64,000 bases of DNA from Microgenomates group bacterium (GCA_049720225.1 JBNASD010000001.1:164733-228732); one strand, 5' to 3'. Counted from the stretch's first letter, positions 6,767 through 60,568 are shown. Notes: generated by a model not told the origin, from the sequence alone. Numbers and translations: made by a program.

Positions 6767-7105
6767 CTAAATTTTTTCTCTATTAGCTAAATAATCTCTT
6801 GCGGCTTTTAAGAATTCTTGCTTTTTTTCTTCTTTTCTTTGAGGAGGGGGTACATTTTTTGACTCTAAGATTCCTATAACTAATTCTTTTACTCCTTTTA
6901 CTTCCCTTAAAGGTAAACCTGCCAAAATAGAAATAACGGGTACCGCTAGAAAAACTAATTTTTGAGGAATTCCATTTTTAATTAACCATTCGGAAAGTTT
7001 TAAAATATCTTCAATTTTTTCTCCTCTCCACTCTTCTACTCTCCTTAAGGCCAAAGGTAAGGGAATATCTCCCGAAGGTCCAAAATTTTTTCTTTCTATT
7101 TTCAT
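6767..7105 (-). CDS. Hypothetical small protein (112 aa) with one predicted TM segment
   Basis: ORF with central hydrophobic stretch LVFLAVPVISILAGLPL; lies directly downstream (minus strand) of the tRNA-Val and zinc-ribbon mini-ORF. Confidence 0.4.
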   Translation of the reverse strand: MKIERKNFGPSGDIPLPLALRRVEEWRGEKIEDILKLSEWLIKNGIPQKLVFLAVPVISILAGLPLREVKGVKELVIGILESKNVPPPQRKEEKKQEFLKAARDYLANREKI

Positions 7106-37748: not shown

Positions 37749-38836
37749 TTTCTTATTACTAAATCCTTAAATTCTTTTTTAAATCTTTCTTTACTAAATC
37801 TTAACGCATTTTGTTGACAATCTTCAACTTTAAATTTCATTTTTTTAAATTTTTTAATCGCCGTAATTAAAGATTCTGGTGTTTGGTGATCGAAAAAAAT
37901 TCCTGTTTTATTTTCAATAATTGTTTCTTTTGCTCCTCCCCCTCGAAAAGCAATTACTGGTTTTCCACACGCCTGGGCCTCTAAAGGTACTAATCCAAAA
38001 TCTTCTTCTTGAGGAAAAATTACCGCCAAACAATTTTGATAATAACTTAACAACTTCTCATCTGTCAACTGACCCAAAAATTCAATGTTTTTATTAGCCA
38101 TTCTTTTAAGTTTCCCCATTTGTTTACCTATCCCGATAATTTTTAATGGCAATCCCAAATCATTAAAAGCTTTTACTGCAATATCAATTTTTTTATAAGG
38201 AACCAGTCGGGAGACAATTAAGAAATATTTTGTATTTTTCTTTTCCGTTTTTCGCTTTGAGCTTTTCGCTTTGAGCTTAAAAAATTCGGTATCTATTGGT
38301 GGATAAATCAATTCAGAATCTTGACAATAGTATTTTTTAATCCTTTGTTGGATATTTTGAGAAATCGCTACATAGCAATCTGGTCGCCAAGAAGCAATTT
38401 TGTCCCATTTTCTTAAATAATTAACTATCGGTTTAGTAATCAATCTCAACATTTTATTTTTAAAGTAATCATCATAACCGCTCCACAAATACCGCGTTGG
38501 AGTTAAACAATAACAAATATGTAAAGTTGATGGTTTCGTAATAATTCCCTTAGCCGCTTCACTGGTAACCGAAATAACCACCTCAAAATTATCAAAATTA
38601 AAACTTTCAAAAGCTAAAGGCATTAACCAAGGATAAAGTTCATGATAAGTTTTTCCTAAAGGAAATTTATTCAAAAATGAAGGAAAAACTTGAAAAACTT
38701 TCGCCCATTGAGCTTTTTTGGGATTATAAACGGCAGTAAACAATGGTGCTTCTGGCCAAATTTCATGCAAAGCCAAAAGTACTCTCTCTGCTCCTCCCCA
38801 TTTGTTAACTCTATCGTAAACTAAGGCTACCCTCAT
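37727..38836 (-). CDS. Glycosyltransferase family 4
   Basis: GGAERVLLAL N-terminal motif; EX7E EDFGLVPLEAQACGKPVIAFRGGGAKETI. Carries heptamer repeat tract 38240-38275. Confidence 0.8.
   Translation of the reverse strand: MRVALVYDRVNKWGGAERVLLALHEIWPEAPLFTAVYNPKKAQWAKVFQVFPSFLNKFPLGKTYHELYPWLMPLAFESFNFDNFEVVISVTSEAAKGIITKPSTLHICYCLTPTRYLWSGYDDYFKNKMLRLITKPIVNYLRKWDKIASWRPDCYVAISQNIQQRIKKYYCQDSELIYPPIDTEFFKLKAKSSKRKTEKKNTKYFLIVSRLVPYKKIDIAVKAFNDLGLPLKIIGIGKQMGKLKRMANKNIEFLGQLTDEKLLSYYQNCLAVIFPQEEDFGLVPLEAQACGKPVIAFRGGGAKETIIENKTGIFFDHQTPESLITAIKKFKKMKFKVEDCQQNALRFSKERFKKEFKDLVIRKWQEKMI
38240..38275. repeat. Heptamer/14-mer tandem repeat (TTTTCGC TTTGAGC)x2 plus two degenerate leading heptads, inside a GT4 gene
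   Basis: ttttccg tttttcg ctttgag cttttcg ctttgag. Confidence 0.6.
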
Positions 38837-38841
38837 AAATT

Positions 38842-39978
38842 TTAAATTTTAAATTTTAAATTTTTATAAATTTCTATTGTTTGGCTGGCCATTTTTTTCC
38901 AAGAATAATTTTTTACTAATTGCTTTCCCTTCTTAATCAAAAATGCTTTTTTTTCTTTATTTTCTATCAATTGTCCTAACTTTTTAATTAAATCTTTTTC
39001 CGAATGTGGATCAAAGTATAATACTGCTTCTTTATATACTTCTCGAAAAACAGGAATATCCGAAGCAATTACCGGTAATCCCACTGCCATTGCTTCTAAT
39101 GCCGGTAAACCAAAACCCTCCATTAAGGAGGGAAAGATAAAAGCTTCTCCCGCTTTGTAAATTTGCGATAATTCTTTATCAGAAACAAAACCAATAAATT
39201 TTACATATTCTTCCGCCTCTAATTTTTTAACCTTTTCCGCTAATCTTTTTTGAAAAATATTTCTTGCACAGACAATTACTAAATAAAGTTTTCTTATCTG
39301 ATTAAATTCCTTTATTGCTTTAATTAAAGTCTCTATATTTTTATGAGGATAAAGGCTACCGGTATAAACCACGAAAGGTCTTTTAATTTTATACTTAGTT
39401 AAAAACCTATCAATTTTAAATTTAAAATTTAAAATTTTAAATTTATTTTCTACTCCTTCATATGTCACTTCAATTTTTTTTGGAGATAAACGATATTTTT
39501 TAATTAATTCTTTTTTCCAAAAATTGGAGGGAGTAATAATTTTTTTTGCTCTTTTTATTGCCCACCAAACTATTAATCGATAATTTAAATATTTAAACCA
39601 ATAAAAAAGCGATCCTCTAGTAGTTGTCTCTTTCCCTTTAAAATAATGTTTAATTAAATCATGAATTGTCACCACGTAATCTCCAAACCAAAAAATCGGC
39701 ACATTAAAGTGAGGAAAATGAACCAAATCAGGTTTTAATTTAAAAAGCAAAATTGGTAAAAAAAATTGTTCTTTGAAAGAATAATGGGGATAATCAGCTA
39801 AAACTTTTTTAAAATTTTTATTTTTAAATTTCAATTTTTTAAAGTACTTTTTCTTTAATAAAATAAAATATTGATTTTCTTTATCTAAACCTTCAATTTC
39901 TTTAATTAAATTCATTACATACCGACCAATTCCTGCGTTTTCCAAACCATATAAACGAGCATCGATGCAAATTTTCAT
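38842..39978 (-). CDS. Glycosyltransferase family 4
   Basis: EGFGLPALEAMAVGLPVIASDIPVFREV. Carries AATTTTA-type heptamer tracts at 39412-39446 and at its 3' end 38847-38874. Confidence 0.8.
   Translation of the reverse strand: MKICIDARLYGLENAGIGRYVMNLIKEIEGLDKENQYFILLKKKYFKKLKFKNKNFKKVLADYPHYSFKEQFFLPILLFKLKPDLVHFPHFNVPIFWFGDYVVTIHDLIKHYFKGKETTTRGSLFYWFKYLNYRLIVWWAIKRAKKIITPSNFWKKELIKKYRLSPKKIEVTYEGVENKFKILNFKFKIDRFLTKYKIKRPFVVYTGSLYPHKNIETLIKAIKEFNQIRKLYLVIVCARNIFQKRLAEKVKKLEAEEYVKFIGFVSDKELSQIYKAGEAFIFPSLMEGFGLPALEAMAVGLPVIASDIPVFREVYKEAVLYFDPHSEKDLIKKLGQLIENKEKKAFLIKKGKQLVKNYSWKKMASQTIEIYKNLKFKI
38847..38874. repeat. Heptamer tandem repeat AATTTTA x4 at the 3' end of GT4 gene 38842..39978
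   Basis: aatttta aatttta aatttta aattttt; encodes C-terminal …KNLKFKI*. Confidence 0.6.
39412..39446. repeat. Heptamer tandem repeat AATTT(T/A)A x5 inside GT4 gene
   Basis: aatttta aatttaa aatttaa aatttta aatttat; encodes KFKILNFKFKI. Confidence 0.6.
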
Positions 39979-40011
39979 AGTTTAATTAATTAAAGAAAAT
40001 AATTTAATCAA

Positions 40012-40935
40012 TTAAATTGAAAGTTTTTTTAACCTTATTTTTTCTAAAATATCAATTCCTTTTAAAACTAACCAAGTAATAAACCGCGGGTATTTATTTA
40101 AATAGTGTTTTCGATAAAAAATTCTCATTGCCGAAGTTGAAGCTTTAATTGCTTTTATTTTTGTTTCTTTATTTGCTAAAGATATTTTTTGCGATTCTTT
40201 TCTTATCCCCGAGGTTATTCCCTTAAAATGAATAATTTTTACTTTTGGAAAATAATAAATTTTCCAACCTAATTTTTTAATTCGATAACAAAAATCCAAA
40301 TCCTCTCCATACCAAAAATAATCTTCATCCCACCAATTTATTTTCTCTCCTGCTTCCCGTCTTACTATTAAAAAAGCACCGGCTCCTGCATCTATTTCAT
40401 GAGCTTCGTTTAAAGGTTTCCACCCGAGAATATAGCCTGAAAAAATTCTTGATTTAGGAAATAATTTTTCTAAACCAGAAAAATGACAAAAAGCATTCCA
40501 AGGTGTAGGAAAACCTCGATGGCAAGCTTCGTCCATTTTTCCATTAGGCAATTCCACTCGACAAGTAGCTACTCCCACCTCTGGATGATCATCCATAAAT
40601 TTAATCATTTCTTTAAATGTATTTTTTTTCACTAAAGTATCAGGATTTAAAAACAATAAATATCTTCCCTTAGCTTTTTTAACTCCTATATTGTTCCCCG
40701 CTGAAAATCCTAAATTTTTTTTGTTTTTAATAATTATCAGTCCTTTAAATTTAAATTTTTCAATTTTCTTTATCGAATTATCAGTAGAAGCATTATCAAC
40801 AACAATTACTTCATAATTAAATCCATTTTTTTCAGAAGAAAAAACCGAATTTAAACAATTTTCAAGAAATTCACCAGAATTATAATTTAAAATAATTATT
40901 GATAAATCAATTTTTTCCTTTTTGGATTTTTTCAT
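40012..40935 (-). CDS. Glycosyltransferase family 2 (WbbL/rhamnosyltransferase-like subfamily)
   Basis: LSIIILNYNSGEFL…VVDNASTDNS…NLGFSAGNN…YGEDLDFCYR. Confidence 0.75.
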   Translation of the reverse strand: MKKSKKEKIDLSIIILNYNSGEFLENCLNSVFSSEKNGFNYEVIVVDNASTDNSIKKIEKFKFKGLIIIKNKKNLGFSAGNNIGVKKAKGRYLLFLNPDTLVKKNTFKEMIKFMDDHPEVGVATCRVELPNGKMDEACHRGFPTPWNAFCHFSGLEKLFPKSRIFSGYILGWKPLNEAHEIDAGAGAFLIVRREAGEKINWWDEDYFWYGEDLDFCYRIKKLGWKIYYFPKVKIIHFKGITSGIRKESQKISLANKETKIKAIKASTSAMRIFYRKHYLNKYPRFITWLVLKGIDILEKIRLKKLSI

Positions 40936-42109
40936 AAACTAAATTAAGTTTTTGGGCGCTTTTTGCCCAATCGTAATTTAACTTTACTAACTTTCTTCCC
41001 TCATTTCCAATTTTTTCTATTTCTGAAGGATTTAAAATTAAATTAATTGTTTTTTTTACTATTTTTTTACAATTATCTTCAATAATTACTCCTTGTCCGT
41101 TTTTTACTTGTATTCCTTCAATTCCTTTAGAGGTAGTAATAATAGGCAATCCTGAGGCCATTGCTTCAAAAAATTTTGTTCTACTTCCTCCTCCACTTTT
41201 CATTGGCGCCACTAACACCCAAGACTGTTGATAAGCACGACGACTATCATCAATTTCCTCAATAATAATATCTTCCTTTCCTCTCCAAGAAGATAAAACT
41301 TTAGGGGCAATTTTCCCTACAATCCAAAGTTGAACATTTTTTAATTTATTTTTAATTTCTGGCCAAATTTCTTTAAGAAGAATTTCCGCTCCTTCTTTAT
41401 TTTGCAACCAATGAAAATCAGCTGCTCCAAATAAAATGGTAGGAATTTTCTTTCTTTTCCATATCCTTTTTCCAAAATAATTAAAGTCAACACCGTTTTC
41501 TACTACCTCCACATCTTTTCTTCCAGAAATTTTTTTTATAAAATCTGCATCCTCCACTGAAACCGCCGTTAACCAATCTGCTTTTTTCCAAAAATAGACC
41601 TCCCAATATTTTAATTTCCAAACATCAATCATTAAAAAGGGTTTTAAAAAAAATAAATACCAAGGTAAAGTCTCTACAAAATGATGAAAAACTTTATATA
41701 AGATTGTCTGTTCGGTAAGAAGAATTGGAACTGAGGTTTTGGGAAGATGTGGCATAACATAAAAATTTTCTGCGTGAATTAAGTCATATTTTTCTTTTTT
41801 AAGCTCCTCTTCTATTGCTTTTTTTTCTTCCTCTGATAAATTTCTTATCACCAAAAAAGGATAGACTCCAAAAATTGTTTTCAATACATTTTTAACTGTC
41901 CAGGGTTTACTTGAACGATAAAAAACTTTTATCTTTCGACAATATTTTTTAAGCTCTTTTATATATTTTTTCTCTTTTTCTTCTTTTATTAAAGAAAAAA
42001 GAGTGATTTGGTGTTTTTTTGCCAAATTTTTAATTAAATTATAAGACCTTACTTGTCCTCCGGAATTAGGAGGATAAGGCAAATATGGCGTAAGCATTAA
42101 AATTTTCAT
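40907..42109 (-). CDS. Glycosyltransferase family 4
   Basis: MKILMLTPYLPYPPNSGGQVRSYNL N-terminus; C-terminal GT-B domain with SKGIEGI…; 400 aa. Confidence 0.7.
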   Translation of the reverse strand: MKILMLTPYLPYPPNSGGQVRSYNLIKNLAKKHQITLFSLIKEEKEKKYIKELKKYCRKIKVFYRSSKPWTVKNVLKTIFGVYPFLVIRNLSEEEKKAIEEELKKEKYDLIHAENFYVMPHLPKTSVPILLTEQTILYKVFHHFVETLPWYLFFLKPFLMIDVWKLKYWEVYFWKKADWLTAVSVEDADFIKKISGRKDVEVVENGVDFNYFGKRIWKRKKIPTILFGAADFHWLQNKEGAEILLKEIWPEIKNKLKNVQLWIVGKIAPKVLSSWRGKEDIIIEEIDDSRRAYQQSWVLVAPMKSGGGSRTKFFEAMASGLPIITTSKGIEGIQVKNGQGVIIEDNCKKIVKKTINLILNPSEIEKIGNEGRKLVKLNYDWAKSAQKLNLVYEKIQKGKN

Positions 42110-43575
42110 AAAACCTCTTTTTTTAAAGATAAGTTAATCATCTTTATTAAAATTCCCAATAGAATCCAAAAAATGAAAGCCACTTTTGACGCTTCAAAAA
42201 CATCAATAAAAGTGGCATTTATTAATATTCCAATTACCGCTCCACCTATTCCTCCTGCTATACTTTTAATAAATAAAGGGGGTCTTTTTTGCCAAAAAAT
42301 TAAAAATTGCCGAAAACCCTCGACAAAAATTAATCCAAAGGCAAAAAAACCTAAAATTCCTGTCTCTCCTAAAGCCCTTAAGTAATCATTATCAGTGGCT
42401 AAAGTAATAGAAGAATAACCTGTTCCTAAAAAAGGATTTTTAATCAAAGCCCGAATAGCTCGAGGCCATTCTACTTTAAATCTAATTCCACTTGAATACT
42501 CTACCGCTACTTCCGTACTTGGTCGCCACCTTTCAATTACGGTAGGCACAGGTGTTGGAGAAATCAGAATTTTTTCTCTTTTTTGGGTTGTTTTTTTTTC
42601 TGCTAAAGGCAAAGGAGTGGGAGTTGGCGAAGGTAAAAAAGTAGGAGAAGGAATAGGAAAACTCGTTCTTATTTTTTGTTCTTGCTTGGGTAAACGCGAA
42701 GAAATAAAAGATAAATCAATATTAAAAGTTAAGGCATATCGTTGACCTAAATCAGAGGAAAAAACCATTCCTAATAAACTAAAAACTAATACCGGTCCAA
42801 TCCATTTAAATTTTTTAACAAAAATTAAAACTCCAATTACTGCTACCAAATATGCAAAAAAAGAAATTCGCGAAGAAGTTAAAAGTAAAGTATAAAAGGC
42901 AAAAATTAATAAGAAAAATCCAAAAATTCTTTCCTTTTTATCTTGAGTTCCTACAATAAATCCAATTGTAATCGACAAAACCATTACCAAAAACGCTGCT
43001 AAATCATAATGACCAGCAAACGTAGAATTAACTCTAGTCCATTCGGTTAATTGCAGCAACATTCCTTTAGAAAACTCCTCATTCATGGTGGAAACTACCG
43101 GCCAATCAAAAAATTTTTGACCAACTGCATAAACTCCCACTCCGATAGTTGCTAAAAATAAAGAAAATAAATAGCTTTTAATTTGACGAAAGTTATTTAA
43201 AGAAGAATAAGCCACAAAAAACAATCCCATATATTCTATTCTTCTTAAAAAATGTAAAAAAGCTAAATGAGGGGTAATGTTTTTAGTAATTAATAAAGCG
43301 CTTAGTAAAGAAAGTAATCCTATTCCCCAATAAAAAACAATCAATTGAGAAATTTTATTCTTAAACGTAGGAAATTTATTCTTACCCTCTAAAAAAAACC
43401 AAATTAAAAAAGTAAAAGCAACAAAAAAGTCTTCAATTCTTATCGCTACATAAGTTCCTGGCACATTAAATAAAGGAAACTTCGGATAAAGAGGAACAAA
43501 AATTAGTAACGCAATAATTAATAAAGATAAAATATTACTTTCCGATGACTGCCAAAGCTTCTTCATAAGTCTCAA
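42106..43575 (-). CDS. O-antigen ligase/polymerase-like (Wzy_C-type) polytopic membrane protein with an internal Pro/Thr-rich periplasmic loop
   Basis: ~10-12 TM; large loop containing FPIPSPTFLPSPTPTPLPLAEKK; flanked by GT genes. Confidence 0.45.
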   Translation of the reverse strand: MRLMKKLWQSSESNILSLLIIALLIFVPLYPKFPLFNVPGTYVAIRIEDFFVAFTFLIWFFLEGKNKFPTFKNKISQLIVFYWGIGLLSLLSALLITKNITPHLAFLHFLRRIEYMGLFFVAYSSLNNFRQIKSYLFSLFLATIGVGVYAVGQKFFDWPVVSTMNEEFSKGMLLQLTEWTRVNSTFAGHYDLAAFLVMVLSITIGFIVGTQDKKERIFGFFLLIFAFYTLLLTSSRISFFAYLVAVIGVLIFVKKFKWIGPVLVFSLLGMVFSSDLGQRYALTFNIDLSFISSRLPKQEQKIRTSFPIPSPTFLPSPTPTPLPLAEKKTTQKREKILISPTPVPTVIERWRPSTEVAVEYSSGIRFKVEWPRAIRALIKNPFLGTGYSSITLATDNDYLRALGETGILGFFAFGLIFVEGFRQFLIFWQKRPPLFIKSIAGGIGGAVIGILINATFIDVFEASKVAFIFWILLGILIKMINLSLKKEVL

Positions 43576-44461
43576 TTAAATATTTATTTTTGGTTATTTT
43601 TCCTAAAATAACGGCTAACCATGCTTTTGATTTTAGCATAAATTTAAGAATATTTTTTTGCCATTGAGATTTATGTTTTTGGTAAAAATAGCAAAGACCC
43701 CGATAAATATTTATAATCGGCCATTTTCTCCCCGAAGGAGAACTTCCTCCACCCAAATGAATAATCTCTGCTCCTGGCCAAAAAATTATTTTCCAACCTG
43801 CTTTTTTAATCCGCCAACACCATTCTACCTCATCCATATACATAAAAATTTCTTCGTCCATAAAGCCAGCATCTTTTAAAACTTCTGGTCTTACCATCAT
43901 CGCCGCCCCCATCACCCAATCTACCTCTTTTGTTTTTTTCGGAGAAAATCTTACCAAATTTCCAAACCAATGCTCACCAAAAAGCATTAAAAAAGAAACC
44001 CAAAGATGAGGAAAATAACCACAAGATGGCTGCCAACTACCATCCGGATTTAATAGCCGACAACCAAGTACTCCTATGTTAGGATTTTTATCCATAAATT
44101 CTGCCATTTTTAAGGGAGCTAAATTTTTAATAATTGTATCGGAGTTTAAAAGCAAAAAATATTCTCCCTCAGCTTTTCTCATTCCCTGATTATTTCCCGC
44201 TCCAAAACCTAAATTTTTCTTATTTTTTATAATTTTTACTCTAAAATTTGGTAAATTGGCAATTTTCAATTTAAAATTTTCCATTACCTCTATCGATCCA
44301 TCCTGCGAACCATTATCTACTAAGATAATTTCTTCGATTAATTTTTCCTTCCTTCCTTCTTTAATCAGAGATTCTAAACAATTTTTTAAAAGTTCTTTAG
44401 TATTATAAGAAAGAATAATGACAGATACTTTTGGTTTTTTGGTTATTTTTTTATTTTCCAT
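43535..44461 (-). CDS. Glycosyltransferase family 2 (WbbL-like)
   Basis: VSVIILSYNTKELL…LVDNGSQDGS…NLGFGAGNNQG…YMDEVEWCWR. Confidence 0.75.
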   Translation of the reverse strand: MENKKITKKPKVSVIILSYNTKELLKNCLESLIKEGRKEKLIEEIILVDNGSQDGSIEVMENFKLKIANLPNFRVKIIKNKKNLGFGAGNNQGMRKAEGEYFLLLNSDTIIKNLAPLKMAEFMDKNPNIGVLGCRLLNPDGSWQPSCGYFPHLWVSFLMLFGEHWFGNLVRFSPKKTKEVDWVMGAAMMVRPEVLKDAGFMDEEIFMYMDEVEWCWRIKKAGWKIIFWPGAEIIHLGGGSSPSGRKWPIINIYRGLCYFYQKHKSQWQKNILKFMLKSKAWLAVILGKITKNKYLIETYEEALAVIGK

Positions 44462-45033
44462 AAAGAATAAATAATTTCTCTTCCTGTATTAAATAAAAAC
44501 AAAATTCCGATCATAATTCCGGTCCAAACTAAAATTCTTGACCAAACAAATGATTCTATATGTTTGAGAATCACTTTTGTTTTATAAATTTTTCCCTCAA
44601 TCAATAATACAGGAGCAGCATCAGGAACTTTTTTTAAATAATAATCATCCTCTTGGGGCGTCCAACCAGCTACAAATAAAGATTCCTTGAGAGGATTAAT
44701 TAATTCTTCGCAATAGGTAAATCGTTGTGTATCACGAACTTTTTCTTGACAATATTCAGGAGGATGATTAAGTTTAATTACCGGTAAGGGCAATCCCCAT
44801 AACCAACTTTTTCCATAAGCTTTTTTAAAAAAATCAATTACTTCTTTGCGTGATAAATCTGTATAAAAAGCCCAAATACCAGGAAATTGATAAGTATCTC
44901 CTGGTTCTTTGGAACGAAAAGAGTCATAAAGCTCAGGAATTACTGGCCCAGGTAAAACTAAATAAAGAAGACCAAGAAAATAAATCAAAATTGCCAATTT
45001 AAAACCAAATTTTTTGAAATTATTTAACTTCAT
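44443..45033 (-). CDS. Hypothetical bitopic membrane protein (196 aa)
   Basis: N- and C-terminal hydrophobic segments; no motifs. Confidence 0.35.
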   Translation of the reverse strand: MKLNNFKKFGFKLAILIYFLGLLYLVLPGPVIPELYDSFRSKEPGDTYQFPGIWAFYTDLSRKEVIDFFKKAYGKSWLWGLPLPVIKLNHPPEYCQEKVRDTQRFTYCEELINPLKESLFVAGWTPQEDDYYLKKVPDAAPVLLIEGKIYKTKVILKHIESFVWSRILVWTGIMIGILFLFNTGREIIYSLWKIKK

Positions 45034-45036
45034 AAA

Positions 45037-45639
45037 TTATTGAAATAATCTCGCTCTTCCTAAGCGATATTTAAACTCCTTCAGTTTTCTTTCGCCGATT
45101 TCTCTTGCGGGTACTCCGGCGACAATTTTTCCTGGAGGAACATCATGAGTAACAATGGCTCCCGCCGCCACCACTGCCCCCCGACCAATTTTTTTTCCTG
45201 GCATAATTATTGCCCGGGGACCAATAAAAACATAATCCTCAATTTCTACCGGTAATTCTACCGCTTTAAACTCAGGATCGTTAATATCATGTTTTGAATT
45301 ATAAATCATCACTTGGGAAGCAATATCAACATGATTACCAATTTTAATTTTTGCTCGCCCATCTAAAAAACAATGATCGCCCACAATTGTATCTTCGCCA
45401 ATTTCAATATTTTTTGGCTGAAAAAAATTTGCCCACATATGAATCGTTGATCCTTTACCAATTTTTATTCCTGCTAAACGATAAAAAAATTTCCTTATAG
45501 TATGAGAGGGAATATGGCCTACCCAACGCAAAAGCATTAATTCAAAATCCAACCAATAATTATAAATCCGATTCAAAATTTTCGGCCAAGCTTGAGAAAA
45601 AGTTAATTCTCTTCCCATTTTATCTTTAAATTTAAACAT
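45037..45639 (-). CDS. Hexapeptide-repeat (LbH) sugar O-acetyltransferase (WcaF/WbbJ-like)
   Basis: [25 protein letters not shown]…[43 protein letters not shown] hexad repeats. Confidence 0.75.
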
Positions 45640-48198: not shown

Positions 48199-48210
48199 AT
48201 TTAAAAAATT

Positions 48211-49290: not shown

Positions 49291-50680
49291 ATCCTTCTTC
49301 TTCTAACCACCTGAGAATTTTTCTTTCCCTGTCGTAAACATCTGTTAAATAAGGAGTATAGGCTATTTTTTGTTTACTAATTTGACCAATCATCCCAATT
49401 AAACCAATTTTATCTTCTTCTTTTATTTCTCTTGCTTCCTCTACTACTCCTATTACCTGCTTTTCTACACCATAATACACTAAAGGCCAATTAAAAGCAG
49501 ATGAAGAAATTACTATTGGGATTTTTTCTTTTTTTAAGTATTCTGCCACTCCTCGCCAATCTTCTCGCCAAAAATAGGAATTAGTCCAATAAGTGAAAAC
49601 CGCTAACACATTAATTCCCAAAATCAATCCAATTATCCCCAATTTTAATTTTTTATTTTTAATCGCTAGAATTCCCTTACTTAAAATCAACAAAAAAGCG
49701 GGTAAAACCAAAATTAACCGAAAGGGTTGATAATTTGGTATTTTTAAAGAAAATAGCCACGCAACCAAAACTGGCAATAAAAACCAAATTAAAATTAATT
49801 TATATTTGTCACTTTTATAATTTTTATAAATTCCCCAACTTTCTATTCCCCCAACCAATCCTAACAATCCTAAAATTACTAAGGCATAAATTTTTTTATT
49901 AAAAATTGTGATTCTTCCCAAGGTAAACTTCACAAAAGTCAAAGGTAAAGCTTTCCAAAAATTTAAATTAACTACTGCCTTCCATTCTGGCAAATTTTGA
50001 GTTCCCGCTAATCCTTCCTTAACCTGCTGAACTATTACTGAAACCCAAGGAAGATAGAAAATAAAAATTCCTAAATAAATAGGTAAAAATTGGCTTAAAT
50101 AATTTTTTAAATTTTTCCGAAAAATAATTAATCCTCCCAAAAATTGACTCAAAATTAATAAAAATCCATAATAATCCGTATAGATTAAAAGAAGGGTGAA
50201 AATTAAATAAAAAATTTGAAATCTAAACTGAAGTTTTGCGTTTTGCGTTTTGCGCTTTGCGTTTTTTAAAATTTTTATCCACCAATACATTGAAAAAGTA
50301 GCCAAAAAACAAGCCATCGCATACATTCTTGCTTCTTGAGAGTAATAAATATGAAATTGAGATGTAGCTAAAAATAAAGCAGAAATTAAACCCCAATTTT
50401 TCCCACCAATTTTGTAAATTAAATAAATTGTTCCTATACCAAATAAAACCGAAGGTATTCGTATACTCATCTCCGACCAACCAAAAATCTTTCCCCAAAA
50501 ATGAAGCAATAAATAATATGCCGGAGGATGAAAATCACCTTTACTAAAATTACTAATTATTTCTCTTAACATTAAATCTCGAGCTACTAACGCGCTAATT
50601 GCTTCATCTAACCATAAGGATTGATTTAAATTTATTAATCGAAAAATTAAAGAAAAGCAAAGAATTAAAAAAATCCACAT
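49226..50680 (-). CDS. GT-C fold membrane glycosyltransferase, ArnT/PMT_2-like (module 2)
   Basis: First loop …NLNQSLWLDEAISALVARD (WxDE); polytopic; 484 aa. Carries TTTTGCG x4 tract 50234-50261. Confidence 0.6.
   Translation of the reverse strand: MWIFLILCFSLIFRLINLNQSLWLDEAISALVARDLMLREIISNFSKGDFHPPAYYLLLHFWGKIFGWSEMSIRIPSVLFGIGTIYLIYKIGGKNWGLISALFLATSQFHIYYSQEARMYAMACFLATFSMYWWIKILKNAKRKTQNAKLQFRFQIFYLIFTLLLIYTDYYGFLLILSQFLGGLIIFRKNLKNYLSQFLPIYLGIFIFYLPWVSVIVQQVKEGLAGTQNLPEWKAVVNLNFWKALPLTFVKFTLGRITIFNKKIYALVILGLLGLVGGIESWGIYKNYKSDKYKLILIWFLLPVLVAWLFSLKIPNYQPFRLILVLPAFLLILSKGILAIKNKKLKLGIIGLILGINVLAVFTYWTNSYFWREDWRGVAEYLKKEKIPIVISSSAFNWPLVYYGVEKQVIGVVEEAREIKEEDKIGLIGMIGQISKQKIAYTPYLTDVYDRERKILRWLEEEGFVKIKEVSFNQIPLLVYENRN
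50234..50261. repeat. Heptamer tandem repeat TTTTGCG x4 inside GT-C gene 49226..50680
   Basis: ttttgcg ttttgcg ttttgcg ctttgcg; encodes KRKTQNAK-type heptads. Confidence 0.65.
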
Positions 50681-50686
50681 AAATAA

Positions 50687-51889
50687 TTACTTTTTTAAAA
50701 TTTCTTGAAAAAGCTTATAATAAGTATTCATAATTAAAGGGAGTCTATATCTACTTTCGATTTCTAATCTTGCTTTTTCTCCTATTTTTTCTCTTAATTG
50801 AGAATTGTTAATTAAAAAAGATAAAGCGGAAAATAGCGATTTAACACTTCCCGTTTTAACTAACCAACCTGTTTTTTTATGTTTAATTACTTCATTAATT
50901 CCCCCCACATTACTTCCAATTACCGCCAATCCACAACTCATTGCCTCTAATAAAGAAAATGGTGTTCCTTCGGGAAAAATTGAGGGATAAACAAAAACAT
51001 CAGAGGCTTTTAACCAATCTACTATTTCTTCCCTTCTTTTTTCTCCTAGAAAAAAAATATTTTTTTCTGATTTTTTACTCTTTTCCTTTAATATTTCTTC
51101 TACTGAATCAGGTTGATTTTTTCCCGAACCTATTAATAACAACAAAGCGTTTCTATTTTTCCTTCCCAATTTATTCCATACTTCAATAAGATTAATTAAC
51201 CCTTTCCTTTTTACTAATCTCCCACAATAAGTAACAATTATTTTTTTAAGCGGTAATCCTAATTTTTTTCTCAATTTTAATTTTTTTTCTTTTTTAAGAG
51301 GGAAAAATAGTTTATCTTCTATTCCATCAGGAATAATTTTTATTTTTTTAGAAGAAACGCCAAAAATTAGAAGTTCTTTTTTAATTTGTTTTGTTTGGGC
51401 GATGAAAAAATCCGCTTTCCTAACTATTTTTAATCTTAATTTAATTAAAGGATGAACAAATTTTTTTGGCGATAATGAATAAGGTCCGCTAAAAAAAAGT
51501 TCGCCGGGAGTGGCTACCCGACTAATCACTTTTTTTCCTAACAATTTTCCTACCAAAATAGCGGTTGATCCAAATATATTAGCTAATCCTCCATTTACAT
51601 AAACTAAATCAAAGTCATTTCTTTTTTTAAACATAAAAATAAAAAGACTTAATCCGCTAAAATAATCTTTTAATCTACCTTCTCCTGGTAATCCCAACCG
51701 AAAAACTTTAAAACCCTCTTTAAAATTTTCTTCTTTTAAAAAGCTTTTCTCCCATCTTTTGGTGGCTATATTGACTTTTATTTTTTTTCTAGATAAATAT
51801 TCAGCCAATTGCCAACACTGAGTTTCTGACCCTCCTTTTAAAGGAAAAAATCTTTCGATTACCATTAAAACGGAAAAATTTTGTTTCAT
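50687..51889 (-). CDS. Glycosyltransferase family 4 (module 3)
   Basis: MVIERFFPLKGGSETQCWQLAEYL; EGTPFSLLEAMSCGLAVIGSNVGGINEVI. Confidence 0.8.
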   Translation of the reverse strand: MKQNFSVLMVIERFFPLKGGSETQCWQLAEYLSRKKIKVNIATKRWEKSFLKEENFKEGFKVFRLGLPGEGRLKDYFSGLSLFIFMFKKRNDFDLVYVNGGLANIFGSTAILVGKLLGKKVISRVATPGELFFSGPYSLSPKKFVHPLIKLRLKIVRKADFFIAQTKQIKKELLIFGVSSKKIKIIPDGIEDKLFFPLKKEKKLKLRKKLGLPLKKIIVTYCGRLVKRKGLINLIEVWNKLGRKNRNALLLLIGSGKNQPDSVEEILKEKSKKSEKNIFFLGEKRREEIVDWLKASDVFVYPSIFPEGTPFSLLEAMSCGLAVIGSNVGGINEVIKHKKTGWLVKTGSVKSLFSALSFLINNSQLREKIGEKARLEIESRYRLPLIMNTYYKLFQEILKK

Positions 51890-53418
51890 TTAAATCCCCA
51901 TGAATAAAGCTCGATTGGCCATTTATTCCAATCTAAAGAAAACCAAGCAACTTCTTCTTTTTTTTCAAAATCTAAGTTTTTTCTTACATAGTCCACTAAA
52001 CCGGCTGGATAAAAACGAAAATTATGTTCTATAATTACTACAAAACCCTGAGGATATCTTCTTAATAATTCCTTGAATTCATCTAAATTATGGATAAAAA
52101 TACCGCCGCTATTTTCATTTATTTTCTTTTCTAAAGAAACATCGTTTCTAGGAATAAACAAATTTTTTCCTTCTCCCAAATACCAAGCAGGTATGTCATG
52201 GCTAATATCTACCAACGCTACTTCATTTATTTTCTCTCCGCTTTTTTCTTTTATTAATTTATAAATTCCTTTGTAATCTATTTCAGGAATTTCTCGCATA
52301 TCAAAATTAAGAGTGTAAAAAGATTTAGGCTTTAAAGAAAATTTGTTACCGTTAATCACTATAAATAAAATTAAAAAAATAAAAAGAACTTCTGCGGTTT
52401 TTTGTTTTTTACCTATGATTCTACTTATTTCCCATAAAGTAAATGAGGTAAGAATAAAAAAAATAGGAAACAAATTTAAAGCGTATTTTTCAAATGATAC
52501 TCCTATTAAAAAGGAAATACTAAATAAATATATAATTATAAACACCAACAAAAAATGAAATAGTTTTTTTTCATTTTTAAACCACAAAATTATTAAACCT
52601 AATAAACTTAAAAAACTAATAAGACTATATTGACGCCAAAATAAAGAATGATAATAAAAAAGAAAATTTTTATTTATATTCAAATTTAAAATTTTATCCC
52701 GAAAAACAACTTTAAAAACAGGAAAAAAATTTGTTCCAAAAAATAATAACAATATAACCCCTAATAACAGTAAAATAAAAAATTTATTTTTAATCAAAAA
52801 AGATAAAATATCTTTTCGAAAAAGAATATATATAAATCCAAAAAGAAAAATAATTAATCCTAATGTATGAACCCAAACAGAAATAAAAGCAAAAATTAAA
52901 AATAAGAATAAATTGAGTTTTCTTTTTTCTTTAACAAAAAGATAAAAATTCAATAACGCAAGAAGATAAAAAACTTCCAAAATTACATATCCCCTCGCTT
53001 GTCTTGACCAGGCAATTTGAATATAAGAAAATGTAGTTAAAGTTGCCCCTCCTAAACCAACTAATTTATTAAAAACTTTTTCTCCAAAAATATAAGTTAT
53101 TAAAATTAAAATACTTCCAAAAATTATTTCAGGAAGTCTTCCTGAAAATTCATTTACACCGAAAATTAAAAAACTTAAAGCAGTAAGATAGTGGGTAATA
53201 AAATAAGAATTTTCTTTATAGCCGGTATAAGGAATTTGGGGAAAACCAGTTTCTAAAATACCTCGAGCAAATCGAGCGGTTGATGCTTCATCAGTCCAAA
53301 AAGAATAATTTTTAGATAATCCATTTATTCTTAATAAAAAGCCAATTATTAATAAACAAAAAATTAAGATTTCGATTATATTTTTTCTTAAAAAATTTCT
53401 CATTTTTTCAAATATCAT
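51886..53418 (-). CDS. GT-C fold membrane glycosyltransferase, ArnT/PMT_2-like (module 3)
   Basis: First loop …YSFWTDEASTARFARGILETG (WxDE); polytopic; 510 aa. Confidence 0.6.
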   Translation of the reverse strand: MIFEKMRNFLRKNIIEILIFCLLIIGFLLRINGLSKNYSFWTDEASTARFARGILETGFPQIPYTGYKENSYFITHYLTALSFLIFGVNEFSGRLPEIIFGSILILITYIFGEKVFNKLVGLGGATLTTFSYIQIAWSRQARGYVILEVFYLLALLNFYLFVKEKRKLNLFLFLIFAFISVWVHTLGLIIFLFGFIYILFRKDILSFLIKNKFFILLLLGVILLLFFGTNFFPVFKVVFRDKILNLNINKNFLFYYHSLFWRQYSLISFLSLLGLIILWFKNEKKLFHFLLVFIIIYLFSISFLIGVSFEKYALNLFPIFFILTSFTLWEISRIIGKKQKTAEVLFIFLILFIVINGNKFSLKPKSFYTLNFDMREIPEIDYKGIYKLIKEKSGEKINEVALVDISHDIPAWYLGEGKNLFIPRNDVSLEKKINENSGGIFIHNLDEFKELLRRYPQGFVVIIEHNFRFYPAGLVDYVRKNLDFEKKEEVAWFSLDWNKWPIELYSWGFK

Positions 53419-54659
53419 GATTTAGCTTTTAAAATTTTAAATACAAACCAATTATTAACCAGCAAACCATAAAATTCACTTATCCCTAAAGATAAAACCG
53501 CCCCCATTAACCCTAACCGAGGGATAAAATAAAGACAAAGTAAAAAATGCAAAATTAATTTTCCACCTAACCACCAAACAAATTTTTTAATTTCCGCGGT
53601 GTTTTGAATAATATTCCCTGGCAAACTATTTAAGAAAAAAAGTCCGGCTACTATTCCTAAAAATTTCATTACTTTTTCCCCTTCTAAATATGAAGAACCG
53701 TAAGAAAATTTAATAATTAATGAAGAAAAAAACCAAAAAATTAAACCATAAATTAAAGAAAAAACAAAAATTAATGATAAAGATTTAAGATAGTTTTCTT
53801 TCAATTTAATTTTATGGTGAACTTTATTTGCTTTTAAAAGCCGAGCAGTTTGAGGAAATAATGCTAAGGCAAAACTTTGAGGAAGAAGCAAACTAGCTTC
53901 TAAAAACTTAAAACTTGAAGAATAAATCCCTGTCCAGTATGCTCCTTTAAACCAATTAATCATTACTACTCCCATTCTTAGATAAAAAACAGCAATAATC
54001 GTTATTGAAGCAAAAACTACTGATTCCTTAATAATTTTTCTCCAAAAGACAAAATCTTTATCAATTTTAAATTTCAAGCCAATTTTCTTTGCTAAGTTAT
54101 ACATAATTAAAGAAACAATTAAGTTTCCTAAAAAAGCCGAAAACAAAACCAAAGTAACATTTCCTTTAAACCCAGCAGTCACTCCTCCTAAAAAAGCCAC
54201 CAAACTACTCATTAAAACAATCGCAAGTGCTTGAATTTCCATTCTTTCAAAAGCATTGGCAATTCCTGCTACCAATTGATTAAAAGTCCACGGCAATAAA
54301 CATAAGGAAAAAATAAAGACATTTAACCTATCAAAATTATTTTTAGAAAGAAAAAACCCTAATAAACTTACCAAAATAATAGAAATAATCGCCAAAACAA
54401 CTCTTAGGGGAATAATTTTTTGAAAATATTCCTGGGCTTTAGAAGTATCTTTTGATAAATCGCGTAAAATCAATCTTTCTACCCCAAAGTCTGCTACTGG
54501 ATAAAAATTATAAACCAAAGCAATCGCAAAATTATAATGACCAAAATTTTCTACTCCAAGAACCCTTCCTAAAAAAATAAAATAAAAAAACCCAATTACT
54601 CTTGCTAAAAAATTGGCGGAACCTAAAAAGAAGGTATTTTTAATTATTTTTCTTTCCAT
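53415..54659 (-). CDS. Oligosaccharide/polysaccharide flippase (Wzx/PST family)
   Basis: 414 aa, ~12 TM; N-terminal IIKNTFFLGSANFLARVIGFFYFIFLGRVLG typical of PST flippases. Confidence 0.6.
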   Translation of the reverse strand: MERKIIKNTFFLGSANFLARVIGFFYFIFLGRVLGVENFGHYNFAIALVYNFYPVADFGVERLILRDLSKDTSKAQEYFQKIIPLRVVLAIISIILVSLLGFFLSKNNFDRLNVFIFSLCLLPWTFNQLVAGIANAFERMEIQALAIVLMSSLVAFLGGVTAGFKGNVTLVLFSAFLGNLIVSLIMYNLAKKIGLKFKIDKDFVFWRKIIKESVVFASITIIAVFYLRMGVVMINWFKGAYWTGIYSSSFKFLEASLLLPQSFALALFPQTARLLKANKVHHKIKLKENYLKSLSLIFVFSLIYGLIFWFFSSLIIKFSYGSSYLEGEKVMKFLGIVAGLFFLNSLPGNIIQNTAEIKKFVWWLGGKLILHFLLCLYFIPRLGLMGAVLSLGISEFYGLLVNNWFVFKILKAKS

Positions 54660-54664
54660 CCTTT

Positions 54665-55000
54665 TTATTTTACTTTTTCTTCTCTTAAAACTTCAAACAT
54701 CATTTGAATTACTCCTATTACCAAAAACACATATACCCAAATCGCTGATTTTTCCGCTAAAAAATCTTTTTTTAAAATCAATAAAATTGGACATAAAATC
54801 AATAATCCCAAAGCTACTTTTACCGAATCTCTTCCCTCAAATTTATAAAGTTTTATTGTTAAAATCCATAACCCCGCTAAAAATAAAATAACCAAATCAG
54901 AAATAAATTTAACCAAAAAAATATCAAATAAAATACCAAAAATAGTAAAAATTAAAATAACCAACTGATACTTTTTAATAAATTTTTTAATTTTTTTCAT
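54665..55000 (-). CDS. Small polytopic membrane protein (111 aa, 3-4 TM); possibly GtrA-like
   Basis: Hydrophobic helices only; size and context next to flippase and GT-C genes; no sequence signature. Confidence 0.3.
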   Translation of the reverse strand: MKKIKKFIKKYQLVILIFTIFGILFDIFLVKFISDLVILFLAGLWILTIKLYKFEGRDSVKVALGLLILCPILLILKKDFLAEKSAIWVYVFLVIGVIQMMFEVLREEKVK

Positions 55001-58000
55001 TTTTATTTTTTAAATTCGAAATAAAATCATATCCTAAATAACTCAGGCATCCAGCGAAAGTTAGTAAAGATATTCCCAAACCTATGTAAAAAAATCGTTG
55101 AGGCCAAAATTCAACAATTAGCTCATAATTTTCTGCTCCTCCTACATCCTCGGGAGTTATATACCACGAATTAGCGTAACCATTTACCAAATAATGTCTC
55201 TCTTCGGCAATCGATTTTTTTCCCCAAGTTTCAAAAGCGGCTGGTTCCAAAAAAGTCATTCGATGGGTTCCCTCTTTAATTTCTCCATCAAAATAACTCG
55301 CCACTTCTTCTCCATATCCCCGATTATCTAAAAACAAATCAGTAACTTTCTCTCCTATTTTTCCAATCATCCCTACAACCACATCTCTTAAGTCTTTAAA
55401 TTTTAAGTTTTGCGCTTTGCCTTTTGCGCTTTGCGCCTCTTTAAGATATATTTTCCATCCTTCATGAAAACTTTCAGAAAAAACTAAGGTATAAGGAGTT
55501 TTGGCTTCTTCTATCTTTATTTTGTACTTTGTCGGATTAACTTTTATAAAAGTAATCTTGGGAATTTGGAATTCGGAGTTTGGAATTTGAAGTCTTTTTC
55601 TTAATATTACTTTTGGTTCCCTTACTTTTTTAATCTGTAAATTTCTAAATTCTACCCTAGCAATTTTGCCTGTTTCTGGTTCGGAATAAAAATAAATTTC
55701 TGCTCCTACCGCTTCGTTATCCGCCTGAAAAACTCTCTCAAATTTTTGCCAATCATTTTCTTCTGAAAATTCCCCGCTGGTTAATTTCTTTTCAAAAATT
55801 TTTTCTTTTCTAATTCTTTCTTTTTCTTCTTCGTATATTCTTTTCTCTTCTACTATTCCTAATCCTAATCTTCCCCCTTCAGTTTTATATTCAAAACTTA
55901 AATAATAGAATTCTCCTGATTGCCAATCATTAATTGGCTGAAAAACTAAATCTTTTGCCTCTGGAAAAAATCCTTGTTTCTCAAAAAATACTCCTTCTTC
56001 TTTTGTTTCTACATCTTTCAATTTTTGCCAATCTTTTCCTACTAAATTAATTCCTTCTAGTAAATATAGTTTTAATTTATGCTCTCCTTCTTCTAACTTT
56101 ATTTTTCCCAATTCTATCCACTCTTCATTTATTTGGAAATTTTCTATTTCTATTTTTTCTCCATCTATTTCTATTTCTCCAATACCAAAATTTTCTAAAC
56201 CCTTATTTTCTTCTTTATTTGGAACTTGGATTTTGGAGTTTGGAATTTCTAAATATAGCGTATATTCTCCTTCCTTTGGTATTTCTAAGACATAATCTAA
56301 TTCATTTAAATCAAATTTTCCTTCAAATTTAGCTATTTTTTTATCTATTTCCTCAAAAGTTTCTTTCCAATTTTTAAACGTTTCAATTTTTAAATCTTTT
56401 AGTTTTTTTATCTCCTCCTGATGTCTTTCAAAATAAGCCCTCAATTTTATTATTTGCTCTTTCTTAATTTCTTGGCTTTCTAATTTTTCAACTTCTTCTC
56501 TTGTCTCCTCAAATTTTTTCTTCCATTCCTCAATTATTAACAAATTATCTATGTCATCTGTAAATTTAACCAACTCTGAGATTCTTTTTCCAGCAAAAAA
56601 TAATTTTTTATCAATTAATTTTTCAGAATTTTTTCTTACTTTCCATTCTTCATAATTTTCTTTTATTTTTGCTAGTTTCCATCCCAAACTATTTGGTTTG
56701 TGTCTTACATAAGGAAAAGACACCTTACTTTTAAAATTCTCCAATTTCTCCCAATAATCTTTATCTATTCCATTTTTCAATTCTCCTACTATTAAAATCT
56801 CATTTGCTTTTTCTAAAATTTCTCCATTCTCTAGTTTTGAGTTTTGAGTTTTGAGTTTTGAGTTTTCTAAGTATATTCCCAACCTTAATTCATCATCACT
56901 TAATTCAATAATTTCTTTTAGATTATCTGTTTTTCCATTAGAGTAGATAATGCGTTTAGAAATGTAAAAGTGTGGTAGAAAGTTTTTATCTTCAGTTTTA
57001 TAAATAGCTACTCTATCAAAATTCCTCTCTAAAATAAAAAATTTATCAATAAATGGTTTTATAAAGTAAGCAGGTCTAATATTTAAGTAAACTTTATTAG
57101 TTGACTCTTCTCTTAAAAATATATATTTAGTATTTAAAAATCCAGAAAATCTTTTCAAAAATAAAGCGAAGCTCTCTGGATTATCTAAATAAAAATAATA
57201 TAAACTGCTATTTATTTCTCTATAATTATCAAAATTAAATTTATCTAAATAATATATTGGCAAAGAAATTAATCTAGCCAAAGGATCAGCTCCTCCGTAA
57301 AGTCCACTTTCTAAATTAAGTATAATTATCCCCGGAACCTCAACAGCATTATCCGGAAGACTTAAAATTTTAAAGTTAATTTTTTGTTTTTCTAAAAAAC
57401 TTCTTATTTCTTCATAATAATTAGGAATTTTAAATCTAAATCCAGGTAAATTTTTAGTCTCTTCTCTCCATACATCACCCGTCCAGAAAGGCCATCCATA
57501 TAGATTAACTAAAAAAAAAGAGAAAAAAATAAAAATATGTTTAATATACCTTCTTTTTATCAAAAAAAGAATTAATGTTAAACTGTAACTAATCAAAATA
57601 CTATTACTTATACATATAAGAGGACCAAATTTTTCATATGCCATTCTAAACCCTTTAAAGATTAAAAATTTATTCAATAACCATTGATTTACTTGGTCAA
57701 ATGGCTCATGAATTCCCTTGCTTAGAAATATTCCTATTAAGAATACTACCCAAAAAAATAGTGTAAAATACTTAGTTTCTCTATTTTGTTTTTTTAAAAA
57801 AATTAAATTTAGAAATATTAAAAATAAAATTATAAAACTAACAAGGATAAACAACCATTTGTTATAAATAGGAGAATAAGGATAGTAAAAATCCTCTCGA
57901 TATTTTCCCCAAAACCCCCAATCTCCAAGATTACGAAATAAATTTAAAATACTTGAAAAACTACTTGATGTTACTTCTTGTTTAAATAGAACAGTTGACT

Positions 58001-58784: not shown

Positions 58785-58790
58785 TTTTTA

Positions 58791-60567: not shown

Positions 60568-60568
60568 T

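Follow-up and report, generated by a model that had tools for sequence, protein, structure and literature searches.

Short tandem repeats with a 7-nt unit lie within the coding sequences of a 64,000-nt stretch of DNA from a Microgenomates group bacterium (GCA_049720225.1 JBNASD010000001.1:164733-228732, hereafter the window), most of them in a surface-glycan locus. The question raised by this locus is whether the tracts are switches of glycan genes, copies of a mobile element, traces of selection on the encoded peptides, chance low complexity, or insertions that have become fixed. An initial annotation had listed ten such tracts and had named contingency (phase-variable) loci, rapidly evolving insertion sites or an element like the Rickettsia palindromic elements (RPEs) as candidates. 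The data analyzed here favored, with a probability of about 0.7, the reading that local tandem duplication produced the tracts, which became fixed and were retained after in-frame gains of three units in tolerant loops.

Excess of period-7 tracts in the window and in related loci

Tracts were called with Tandem Repeats Finder, which returned period-7 arrays at or beside all ten sites, and each sequence was then read directly, with units given on the coding strand. Under a strict test (at least four copies, at most 3 mismatches in 21), six tracts were found in the window, in comparison with none in 30 dinucleotide shuffles and 0.00 in 40 local shuffles in which codon triplets were permuted inside 150-nt blocks. 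A lenient test (at most 5 mismatches in 21) found 14 tracts, in comparison with a mean of 1.57 in the triplet-block shuffles. The claim of at least ten heptamer tracts inside open reading frames (ORFs) held for the nine that passed the lenient test, but the tract at 38240 proved to be an exact 14-nt duplication. Exact tracts of at least three units numbered three at period 7, zero to one at each of periods 5 and 6, and none at periods 8-15.

Chance low complexity in AT-rich coding DNA, or artefacts of assembly, would be one explanation, and it agrees with the low GC content of the tract region (25-32%, in a window of 25-40%) and with three window tracts that are made of A and T alone. However, the shuffles that preserved local composition gave no strict tracts, only period 7 was enriched, and such tracts occur in many independent assemblies, always in frame. 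The statement that the tracts are very unlikely by chance was borne out, and this explanation has practically no prospect of being correct.

Species-representative genomes were scanned with an alignment of AftD-like proteins, and 78 related loci (1.44 Mb) were obtained, mostly from metagenome-assembled genomes of the Patescibacteria, or Candidate Phyla Radiation (CPR). In these loci and the window together (1.5 Mb), tracts of at least four copies numbered 3 at period 5, 21 at period 6, 60 at period 7, 12 at period 8, and 0-1 at each of periods 9-15. The period-7 excess extends beyond this genome to related loci, and 50 of the 60 period-7 tracts were inside ORFs of at least 100 aa. Exact heptanucleotide tracts occurred at about 12 per Mb in the CPR loci and three times in the 64 kb of the window; genomes of Haemophilus influenzae (1.8 Mb) contain 0-4 heptanucleotide repeats of at least three copies (PMC2651432). 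A metagenome scan for CAAAANN repeated 3.7 times returned 120 contigs, most with 4.0-4.9 copies (the pattern itself fixes the minimum length) and some with arrays of 10-37 copies. Because the GC content of these contigs spans 0.22-0.70, the CAAAANN unit type is general and no speciality of the CPR.

The reported concentration of tracts in the surface-glycan locus is true of the window, where nine of the ten lie in the glycan part, which makes up 43% of the sequence (binomial P = 0.003; P = 0.055 for the six strict tracts only). It is, however, no strict rule, since the division/cell-wall (dcw) cluster of a relative has tracts in MurE and MurB. Glycan or GT-C genes made up 23 of 25 tract hosts, in comparison with 22 of 30 length-weighted random ORFs of the same loci (Fisher P = 0.09), but this comparison says little about glycan enrichment, as the sampled loci were glycan loci throughout.

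Three-unit gains in glycosyltransferase loops

The glycosyltransferase gene 38842..39978, of family GT4, was used to search for orthologs. There were 120 at 54-71% identity, of which 30 were aligned, and the loop DNA was read between the motifs TYEG and PF. This loop lies between two Rossmann domains (Pfam boundaries at residues 177 and 198), and in the AlphaFold model of the protein residues 181-190 had a predicted local distance difference test score of 63, among the lowest stretches, the mean being 86.5. Two paralogous GT4 genes had been said to carry different tracts at the same position and a third (45632) to have none. This was confirmed, as the tracts at 39412 and 48686, together with that at 38240, share the interdomain loop. 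Across the window and its relatives, the comparison of copy numbers that had been suggested as a check gave 1.7, 4.4, 4.5, 4.7 and 5.6 copies in the GT4 loop (Table 1). The orthologs vary in unit, unit length and copy number, and one, L206, is unexpanded, which supports the view of rapidly evolving insertion sites in glycan enzymes.

The window tract at 39412 equals the L206 seed AAATTTAAGATT plus 21 nt. Because 24 + 7 = 31 and 24 + 8 = 32 aa, three units were gained whether the unit was 7 or 8 nt long. Read from these sequences, frame-preserving three-unit expansions recur at one hotspot, the GT4 interdomain loop. The V-to-K segment of the loop was 17 aa long in one of the 30 aligned orthologs, 24 aa in 11 and 25 aa in 7. 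The puzzle that the GT4 loop seemed to show no gain was resolved, because most orthologs are themselves expanded and the unexpanded L206 was found.

Added units were then measured as the length L of the self-match at offset 7, under a relaxed score threshold; of the 59 tracts obtained in this way, 52 were in ORFs. Among the coding tracts, one, two, three and four units had been added in 15, 7, 26 and 4 cases, respectively. The peak at three units (26 vs 7, binomial P = 7e-4) would not be produced by a simple decay, and the histogram of exact runs showed 12 tracts at L = 21-27 in comparison with about 1.3 expected (P = 1e-8). Unit gains were more evenly spread among the seven non-coding tracts, a number too small for a test. 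A three-unit block (21 nt, 7 aa) is divisible by three, whereas a single unit of 7 nt (8 nt in L205) is not. A seed of one to two copies that receives three units reaches the copy number of four to five noted initially.

Other sites showed the same recurrence. After the motif SESFHEGWKxY of the AftD-like protein, the window has CGCAAAA-type units (55408) and L006 has (AAAACTC)x4.7 (CTCAAAA) at the same alignment position. The L006 ortholog of the PMT_2 glycosyltransferase carries a different tract (AATTTTC x4.3) about 30 residues upstream of the position of window tract 50233. In another GT-C family, one site holds AAATTAC x5.9, AAATGTC and AAATAAC in L014, L023 and L040, and other members of the family keep ISNFKL or IFNFQL, the translations of (AAATTTC)n or (AATTTTC)n. 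The GT2 gene beside the GT4 has (AAAATTC)x4.9 and 6 additional residues in L202, whereas the window has no tract there. The 3' end of the GT4 gene is also prone to repeats, with (AAAATTT)x4.1 in the window and period-8 repeats in L201, L203 and L204. Compared with the homologs P0003, P0006 and P0012, the tract at 56833 inserts a net 6-12 aa.

The reading to which we gave about 0.7 builds on what was observed directly, namely the tracts and their excess, the three-unit peak, the unexpanded and the differently expanded orthologs, and the absence of frameshifted alleles. Local tandem duplication would proceed most probably by replication slippage or misalignment on short A/T-rich direct repeats, in a 7-nt register. 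A first filter would be that the net gain keeps the frame, which for a 7-nt unit means three units, 21 nt or 7 aa. A second would require a unit free of TAA, TAG and TGA in all three frames of the coding strand, leaving units of the form A-run, T-run, C, in a fixed orientation; such units would encode peptides of Lys, Gln, Asn, Ser, Ile and Phe. Survivors would build up in loops that tolerate seven extra residues, such as the GT4 interdomain linker, loops of GT-C membrane glycosyltransferases and C-termini, and because tolerant loops would collect survivors, the tracts would be concentrated in the glycan locus rather than in the dcw and aminoacyl-tRNA synthetase part. Related Microgenomates show repeated hits at the same loops, with the unit replaced at about 15% protein divergence.

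The unit sequences were consistent with the second filter. Twenty-eight of the 34 majority units were stop-free in all frames of the coding strand, and 23 had reverse complements that were not. The unit "families" and their single orientation are partly explained, because AT-rich heptamers must be stop-free in any frame. Units such as AAAATTC, AATTTTC, AAAACTC and AAATTCC are found because, in AT-rich DNA, only a C between the T-run and the A-run avoids TAA, TAG and TGA. The AT-only unit AAATTTA contains TAA, and for this reason its tracts within genes (39412, 5020) are imperfect, a perfect one being found only at an ORF end (38836). Hydrophilic, A-rich units seem to be favored.

Another possibility is that the periodicity arose because the encoded peptide was itself selected as useful, as might hold for amphipathic, Lys-rich heptads of the KFKI type in membrane-facing linkers. 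Peptides resembling KFKI...KFKI do recur in the GT4 loop of paralogs and orthologs, and the encoded peptides are mostly hydrophilic and basic. However, the DNA has a period of 7 (8 in L205) and perfect identity over 29-40 nt, and the peptides at the same site are wholly different between orthologs (FSIFNFQFS, KYQISNIKYQISN, KFSNFQIFKFSN). Because selection on protein gives only multiples of 3 nt, the 7-nt periodicity does not come from it; moreover, an unexpanded ortholog and non-coding tracts exist. Selection for a peptide is thus highly unlikely as the cause.

Several observations weigh against fixed three-unit gain as a full account. No net gain of 7 aa relative to the nearest ortholog was found at 38240 (+1 vs L201, which has no tract), 50233 (+1 vs L006), 55561 (-1 vs P0003) or 48685 (+2 vs L004, which has no tract at the site). 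The close relative L200 (Logan SRR26201534_1785) has period-7 tracts at 3662-3700 and 6807-6838, in the essential genes murE and murB, and neither changes the length of the protein relative to the window ortholog. A universal rule of "+7 aa in every case" was rejected, as several tracts amount to only 0 to +2 aa relative to the nearest ortholog, and because these tracts bring no net length gain, simple insertion is incomplete as an account. At sites other than the GT4 loop, the lack of gain may reflect older expansions in both lineages, compensating deletions, or length-neutral homogenisation through transient misalignment on imperfect repeats. Transient misalignment is known from polymerase studies as a mechanism that homogenises imperfect repeats. 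The L200 murE and murB tracts suggest this length-neutral route, and templated correction of imperfect repeats may have acted wherever length did not change.

The abundance of heptamers, too, explains the choice of unit only partly, since the median rank of the units was 115 of 1608 stop-free classes. In L005 (Shapirobacteria PFLE01000011.1, 10198-14038), seven period-7 tracts occur in 22 kb, mostly of the GGATATT type (with AGATATT variants) or its complement CAATATC; the GGATATT-type unit is also present at L001:11227-11246. This genome-specific preference is unexplained by the stop-codon and composition filters, and no test accounted for the preference for 7 nt over 5, 8 or 10. Finally, the three exact period-14 tracts of the window, described below, would imply a gain of 7 followed by 14 nt through a frameshifted intermediate, so that transient inactivation of the gene may fit them better than a single clean gain of 21 nt.

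Phase variation and mobile elements as alternatives

If the tracts were contingency loci, slipped-strand gain or loss of one 7-nt unit would switch glycan genes off and on at high frequency and diversify the surface of the population. Consistent with this, the repeats stand within surface-glycan genes and have a unit length not divisible by three; at the window tracts, any loss or gain of 7 nt leads to a stop within about 30 codons. Within the window, the dispensable glycan genes are enriched in tracts relative to the essential dcw genes (P = 0.003, as above). Units are uniform within a tract and different between orthologs, which suggests that slippage is still active on an evolutionary time scale. 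There is also a precedent in H. influenzae, where heptanucleotide repeats are found in the hmw1A and hmw2A promoters and an intragenic, frameshifting (AATTTTG)14 in hmw1A of strain PittAA, and where switches have 13-38 copies (PMC2651432). The window tracts resemble such simple sequence repeat (SSR) contingency loci in having a unit that is not a multiple of three, in lying in surface genes, and in that a one-unit change shifts the frame; the unit AATTTTG is also that of window tract 48685.

In contrast, the window tracts have 4-5 copies, which is above the screening threshold of at least three copies but far below the 13-38 of proven switches (PMC2651432). Seven of the ten are imperfect and two to three are perfect; the tracts at 5020, 39412, 55561 and 56217 have 20-24 matches in 24-28 comparisons. 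They are scattered along the genes with no concentration at the 5' end. All ten lie in intact ORFs or at an ORF end, that is, in the ON state, and none of the 59 tracts in the window and the 78 loci marks a frameshifted gene; two are at junctions of ORFs in different frames, and both of these are natural gene ends. All 30 aligned GT4 orthologs are in frame. Loops were identical in ortholog pairs at least 95% identical (95-99.7% outside the loop), and at about 86% identity the unit had been replaced (AATTTTC x4.4 vs AAATATC x5.6). A perfect 39-nt tract is the same in L203 and L204, two samples 99.25% identical in DNA (1862 nt, 11 mismatches), and the relative L200 has tracts in the essential MurE and MurB. 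When 200 loci were compared with one another by megablast, a single distinct pair exceeded 80% identity, and no tract of at least four copies was found in that pair. No OFF alleles or copy-number differences were found between the very close relatives compared.

These comparisons weigh against contingency loci: low copy number, imperfect tracts, the absence of frameshifted genes and the identical tract in the 99.25% pair all count against it, and phase variation at the window tracts is unproven, currently disfavored and, in our judgement, unlikely. The alignments point to a hotspot that would turn over on evolutionary time scales rather than a switch within a population, with which frameshift variants at a low rate remain compatible.

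The three period-14 tracts deserve separate mention. Exact 14-nt repeats of two slightly different 7-mers are found at 38249-38278, 48688-48718 and 55408-55434, and they suggest a gain of 7 nt and then 14 nt through an OFF state. At 48688-48718 the variant base derives from the left flank (AAAG-TTCAAAATTC-AAA), and deletion of 14 nt creates an in-frame TGA. A frameshifted intermediate would be tolerable only in dispensable genes, and this could explain why clean tracts are present in glycan genes and not in dcw genes. The period-14 structure would be the best remaining argument for a contingency-like history. On such a history, CPR glycan genes would cycle from ON to OFF (+7) and back to ON (+14) at low-copy contingency sites, ABAB tracts of period 14 would be scars of frameshift and rescue, and renewal of the loop would reflect selection for mutability, for example under pressure from phages or host cells. 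We consider this unlikely; if true, phase variation driven by SSRs would be documented in the CPR for the first time.

Better candidates for heptanucleotide phase variation than the window tracts were seen in metagenome contigs. In L101 (OEAE01000097.1, 548-4011), and also in L161, L195 and L155, arrays of about 10 copies of AAAACTC lie exactly at the junctions of consecutive ORFs in different frames, and these contigs also have heptamer arrays of 13-37 copies within ORFs.

A further alternative is a short mobile repeat element of the intragenic type, like the RPEs, of which the tracts would be copies. Similar units are indeed present in several window genes (TTTTGCG at three sites, GGAATTT at two), and true palindromic elements stand in frame in the same types of loop in the relatives L001 and L207. 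As with the RPEs, extra peptide is placed in permissive loops of conserved proteins without destroying them. However, RPEs are palindromic, dispersed, about 100-150 bp long and conserved in sequence, whereas the window tracts are tandem 7-mers with units that vary by site and with no palindrome or inverted repeat. A comparison of the flanks of the window tracts found no shared sequence outside the tandem units. Part of the recurrence of units is explained by the stop-codon and composition filters, and the tract at 39412 is the unexpanded L206 seed with 21 nt added. The comparison with RPEs was therefore abandoned, with the unit types due at least partly to AT-richness and stop avoidance, and a mobile element is extremely unlikely.

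Palindromic in-frame insertions, none of which is present in the window, were seen in two relatives. The GT4 ortholog P0179 on L207 (3090-3170; ENA ERZ27247220 k141_556612) has a 78-nt GC-rich element with three hairpins, in frame in the interdomain loop. It consists of CTCCCGCCTTCCGGCGGGACCCCGCCAAAGGCGGTGGCAAATTCCCTGCCTTGCCGGCAGGCAGGC and AAATTCCAAATA (the second copy of the flanking repeat), with the direct repeat AAATTCCAAAT on both sides. The ortholog P0177, which is 93% identical, lacks this element, and P0181 has a variant of it; the element looks like an intragenic insertion of the miniature inverted-repeat transposable element or RPE type. The AftD-like homolog P0002 on L001 (11090-12431; JGI Ga0078972_1012455) contains in-frame copies of an element of about 55 nt with two hairpins (GTCCCGAC..GTCGGGAC and GCGGCTTCGCCGC), which encode MSRRDVGTKYAASPRN. 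These copies are accompanied by GAAATAnATA tandem repeats of 10/11-nt period (21 nt per pair), which are also intergenic, at 13679-13735 and 14251-14298.

Tracts, genes and known heptanucleotide repeats

The window tracts, the glycan locus and the GT4 loops of relatives are collected in Table 1.

Table 1. Repeat tracts of the window, the surface-glycan locus that hosts most of them, and the GT4 interdomain loop in the window and in relatives.
Feature	Position	Strand	Host gene, residues or loop length
ATTTAAA-type AT-only tract, imperfect; 4.4 copies, 20/24 self-matches	5020..5050	+	epmA 4640..5590, aa 127-137, FKILNLKFKI
Exact 14-nt duplication GCTCAAAGCGAAAA x2.1; weak 7-nt periodicity, 23/32	38240..38278	-	Glycosyltransferase 37727..38836, aa 187-199, interdomain loop
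Perfect (AAAATTT)x4.1	38836..38864	-	Last 7 residues and TAA stop of GT4 38842..39978
AAATTTA/AAATTTT tract, 4.7-4.9 copies, 24/27	39412..39445	-	GT4 38842..39978, aa 178-189, NKFKILNFKFKI, interdomain loop
TTCAAAA/TTCAAAG tract, 4.9 copies, exact period 14	48685..48718	-	GT4 48211..49290, aa 191-202, KKFKIQSSKFKI; loop as for 39412
Near-perfect (AAAACGC)x4.7, 24/26, one mismatch	50233..50265	-	PMT_2 GT-C membrane glycosyltransferase 49226..50680, aa 139-149, NAKRKTQNAK
CGCAAAG/CGCAAAA/GGCAAAG tract, 4.1 copies, exact period 14	55408..55436	-	AftD-like GT-C, aa 1117-1126, AQSAKGKAQN
Imperfect AAATTCC-type tract, 5 copies, 21/28	55561..55595	-	AftD-like protein, aa 1064-1075, RLQIPNSEFQIP
Imperfect AAAyTCC-type tract, 4.6 copies, 20/25	56217..56248	-	AftD-like protein, aa 846-856, EIPNSKIQVPN
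Perfect (AAAACTC)x4.9	56833..56866	-	AftD-like protein, aa 640-651, NSKLKTQNSKL
Surface-glycan locus, begins at ~36.6 kb	36630..61738	-	Hosts 9/10 tracts
GT4 loop, L206: GAC AAA TTT AAG ATT GGA; seed AAATTTAAGATT, ~1.7 copies of AAATTTA, unexpanded			24 aa
GT4 loop, window: (AAATTTA/AAATTTT) x4.7			31 aa
GT4 loop, L202: perfect (AATTTTC) x4.4			31 aa
GT4 loop, L205: perfect octamer (AAATTTTC) x4.5			32 aa
GT4 loop, L203 and L204: perfect (AAATATC) x5.6			33 aa
GT4 loop, L201: decayed AAATATC pair			32 aa

The tract at 5020 falls in a region that is variable among LysRS/PoxA structures. The tract that the initial annotation had placed wholly within an ORF, at 38847-38874, was corrected to 38836-38864; it runs past the GT4 stop and also occupies the 5-nt gap before the ATG of gene 37727..38836. 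A -1 programmed frameshift at A AAT TTA, which is in frame in this tract, was considered and rejected, since the -1 frame meets TAA at 38851-38849 and the downstream ORF is open only from 38848.

Weaker repeats were also seen in the glycan genes. A degenerate period-21 repeat (3.3 copies, 65% match) lies at 52790-52860 in the PMT_2 gene 51886..53418, and a duplication of 21-24 nt at 55800-55843 in the AftD-like gene; these two repeats may represent three-unit blocks that are older and have decayed. At 49067-49107, in the N-terminal loop of GT4 48211..49290, there is a weak period-8/14 periodicity, probably what remains of a tract; in the ortholog L004, two clear heptamer tracts of the AAAATTC type stand at this place.

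Nearly all genes of the window are on the minus strand. ParB, IleRS and a full dcw cluster occupy 8-33.5 kb. The glycan locus encodes an NDP-sugar transferase, four GT4 and one GT2 glycosyltransferases, a Wzy-like protein, an acyltransferase, a flippase, three PMT_2 GT-C proteins, the AftD-like GT-C protein and a UDP-GlcNAc 2-epimerase. Synteny of this locus was found in L201, L202, L206 and L207. L200 and L201 are parts of one contig that is syntenic with the window, and their proteins are 71-81% identical to those of the window. The AftD-like protein (54987..58784, minus strand) has 1265 aa and carries the four tracts at 55408, 55561, 56217 and 56833.

A search with MraY showed that relatives with housekeeping proteins 84-96% identical to those of the window exist, whereas the best match of the AftD-like protein was only 46% identical. 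This leaves two possibilities for the distal part of the glycan locus (window 54665-58784): it has diverged much further than the housekeeping genes, or the assemblies of these relatives lack it. All nine window proteins tested were singleton clusters at 90% identity. Close orthologs of the window PMT_2, AftD-like, MraY and GT4 proteins were also encoded on contigs labelled Bathyarchaeia, namely L006 (DATKWK010000035.1, 394 kb), P0126, P0129 and P0279, and several further loci carry the label "uncultured Gammaproteobacteria"; these contigs are probably mis-binned or mislabelled CPR.

Heptanucleotide repeats have been described as the most abundant class of long SSRs in most prokaryotic genomes, with polymerase slippage as the proposed cause (Mrazek et al. 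2007, as cited in PMC4679880 and PMC4692102). The examples given in these two papers are GGGAATC in Xanthomonas, GGGGA(T/C)T and the short tandemly repeated repetitive sequences of Nostoc and Calothrix, and TAACTGA in Beggiatoaceae. The window tracts are like them in that 7-nt units are far commoner than neighboring lengths and the units are variable; a link between slippage and a polymerase footprint of about 7 nt has been proposed there. The repeats described in those sources are overwhelmingly intergenic, often with one dominant unit per genome and often with many copies. In contrast, the tracts of the window and the CPR loci lie inside genes, have many different units, and have the 4-5 copies of a frame-keeping three-unit gain. 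The host also differs, being a small-genome CPR bacterium with almost no intergenic DNA.

The amino acid tandem repeats of the Borgs of Methanoperedens (PMC9879509) are another parallel, because they also rise locally from short seeds, leave ORFs unbroken, have an A-rich coding strand, encode hydrophilic or disordered peptide and evolve fast. However, the genic repeat units of Borgs are longer and divisible by three, whereas the window units have 7 nt (in relatives sometimes 8), keep the frame by threes and form much shorter arrays. The "constant-size tandem repeats" of Bacillus (20-21 and 52 nt; PMC8161180) were discarded as a parallel, since those repeats are non-coding. The tracts belong to the known class of heptanucleotide SSRs, and their distinctive intragenic form is the three-unit in-frame gain, which recurs at the same loops across Microgenomates.

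For annotation, this means that the label phase-variable is unwarranted for such tracts from sequence alone, although they point to sites at which one slip would inactivate a surface-glycan gene. Slippage in a 7-nt register, which is usually visible between genes only, would also shape proteins in CPR bacteria: the same glycosyltransferase loops would repeatedly gain blocks of seven (or eight) residues, with the reading frame as the filter that leaves three-unit gains. Recent insertions in such proteins can be recognized by this rule, which is simple and testable, and the tracts may serve as a natural record of slippage by polymerases that are beyond the reach of culture.

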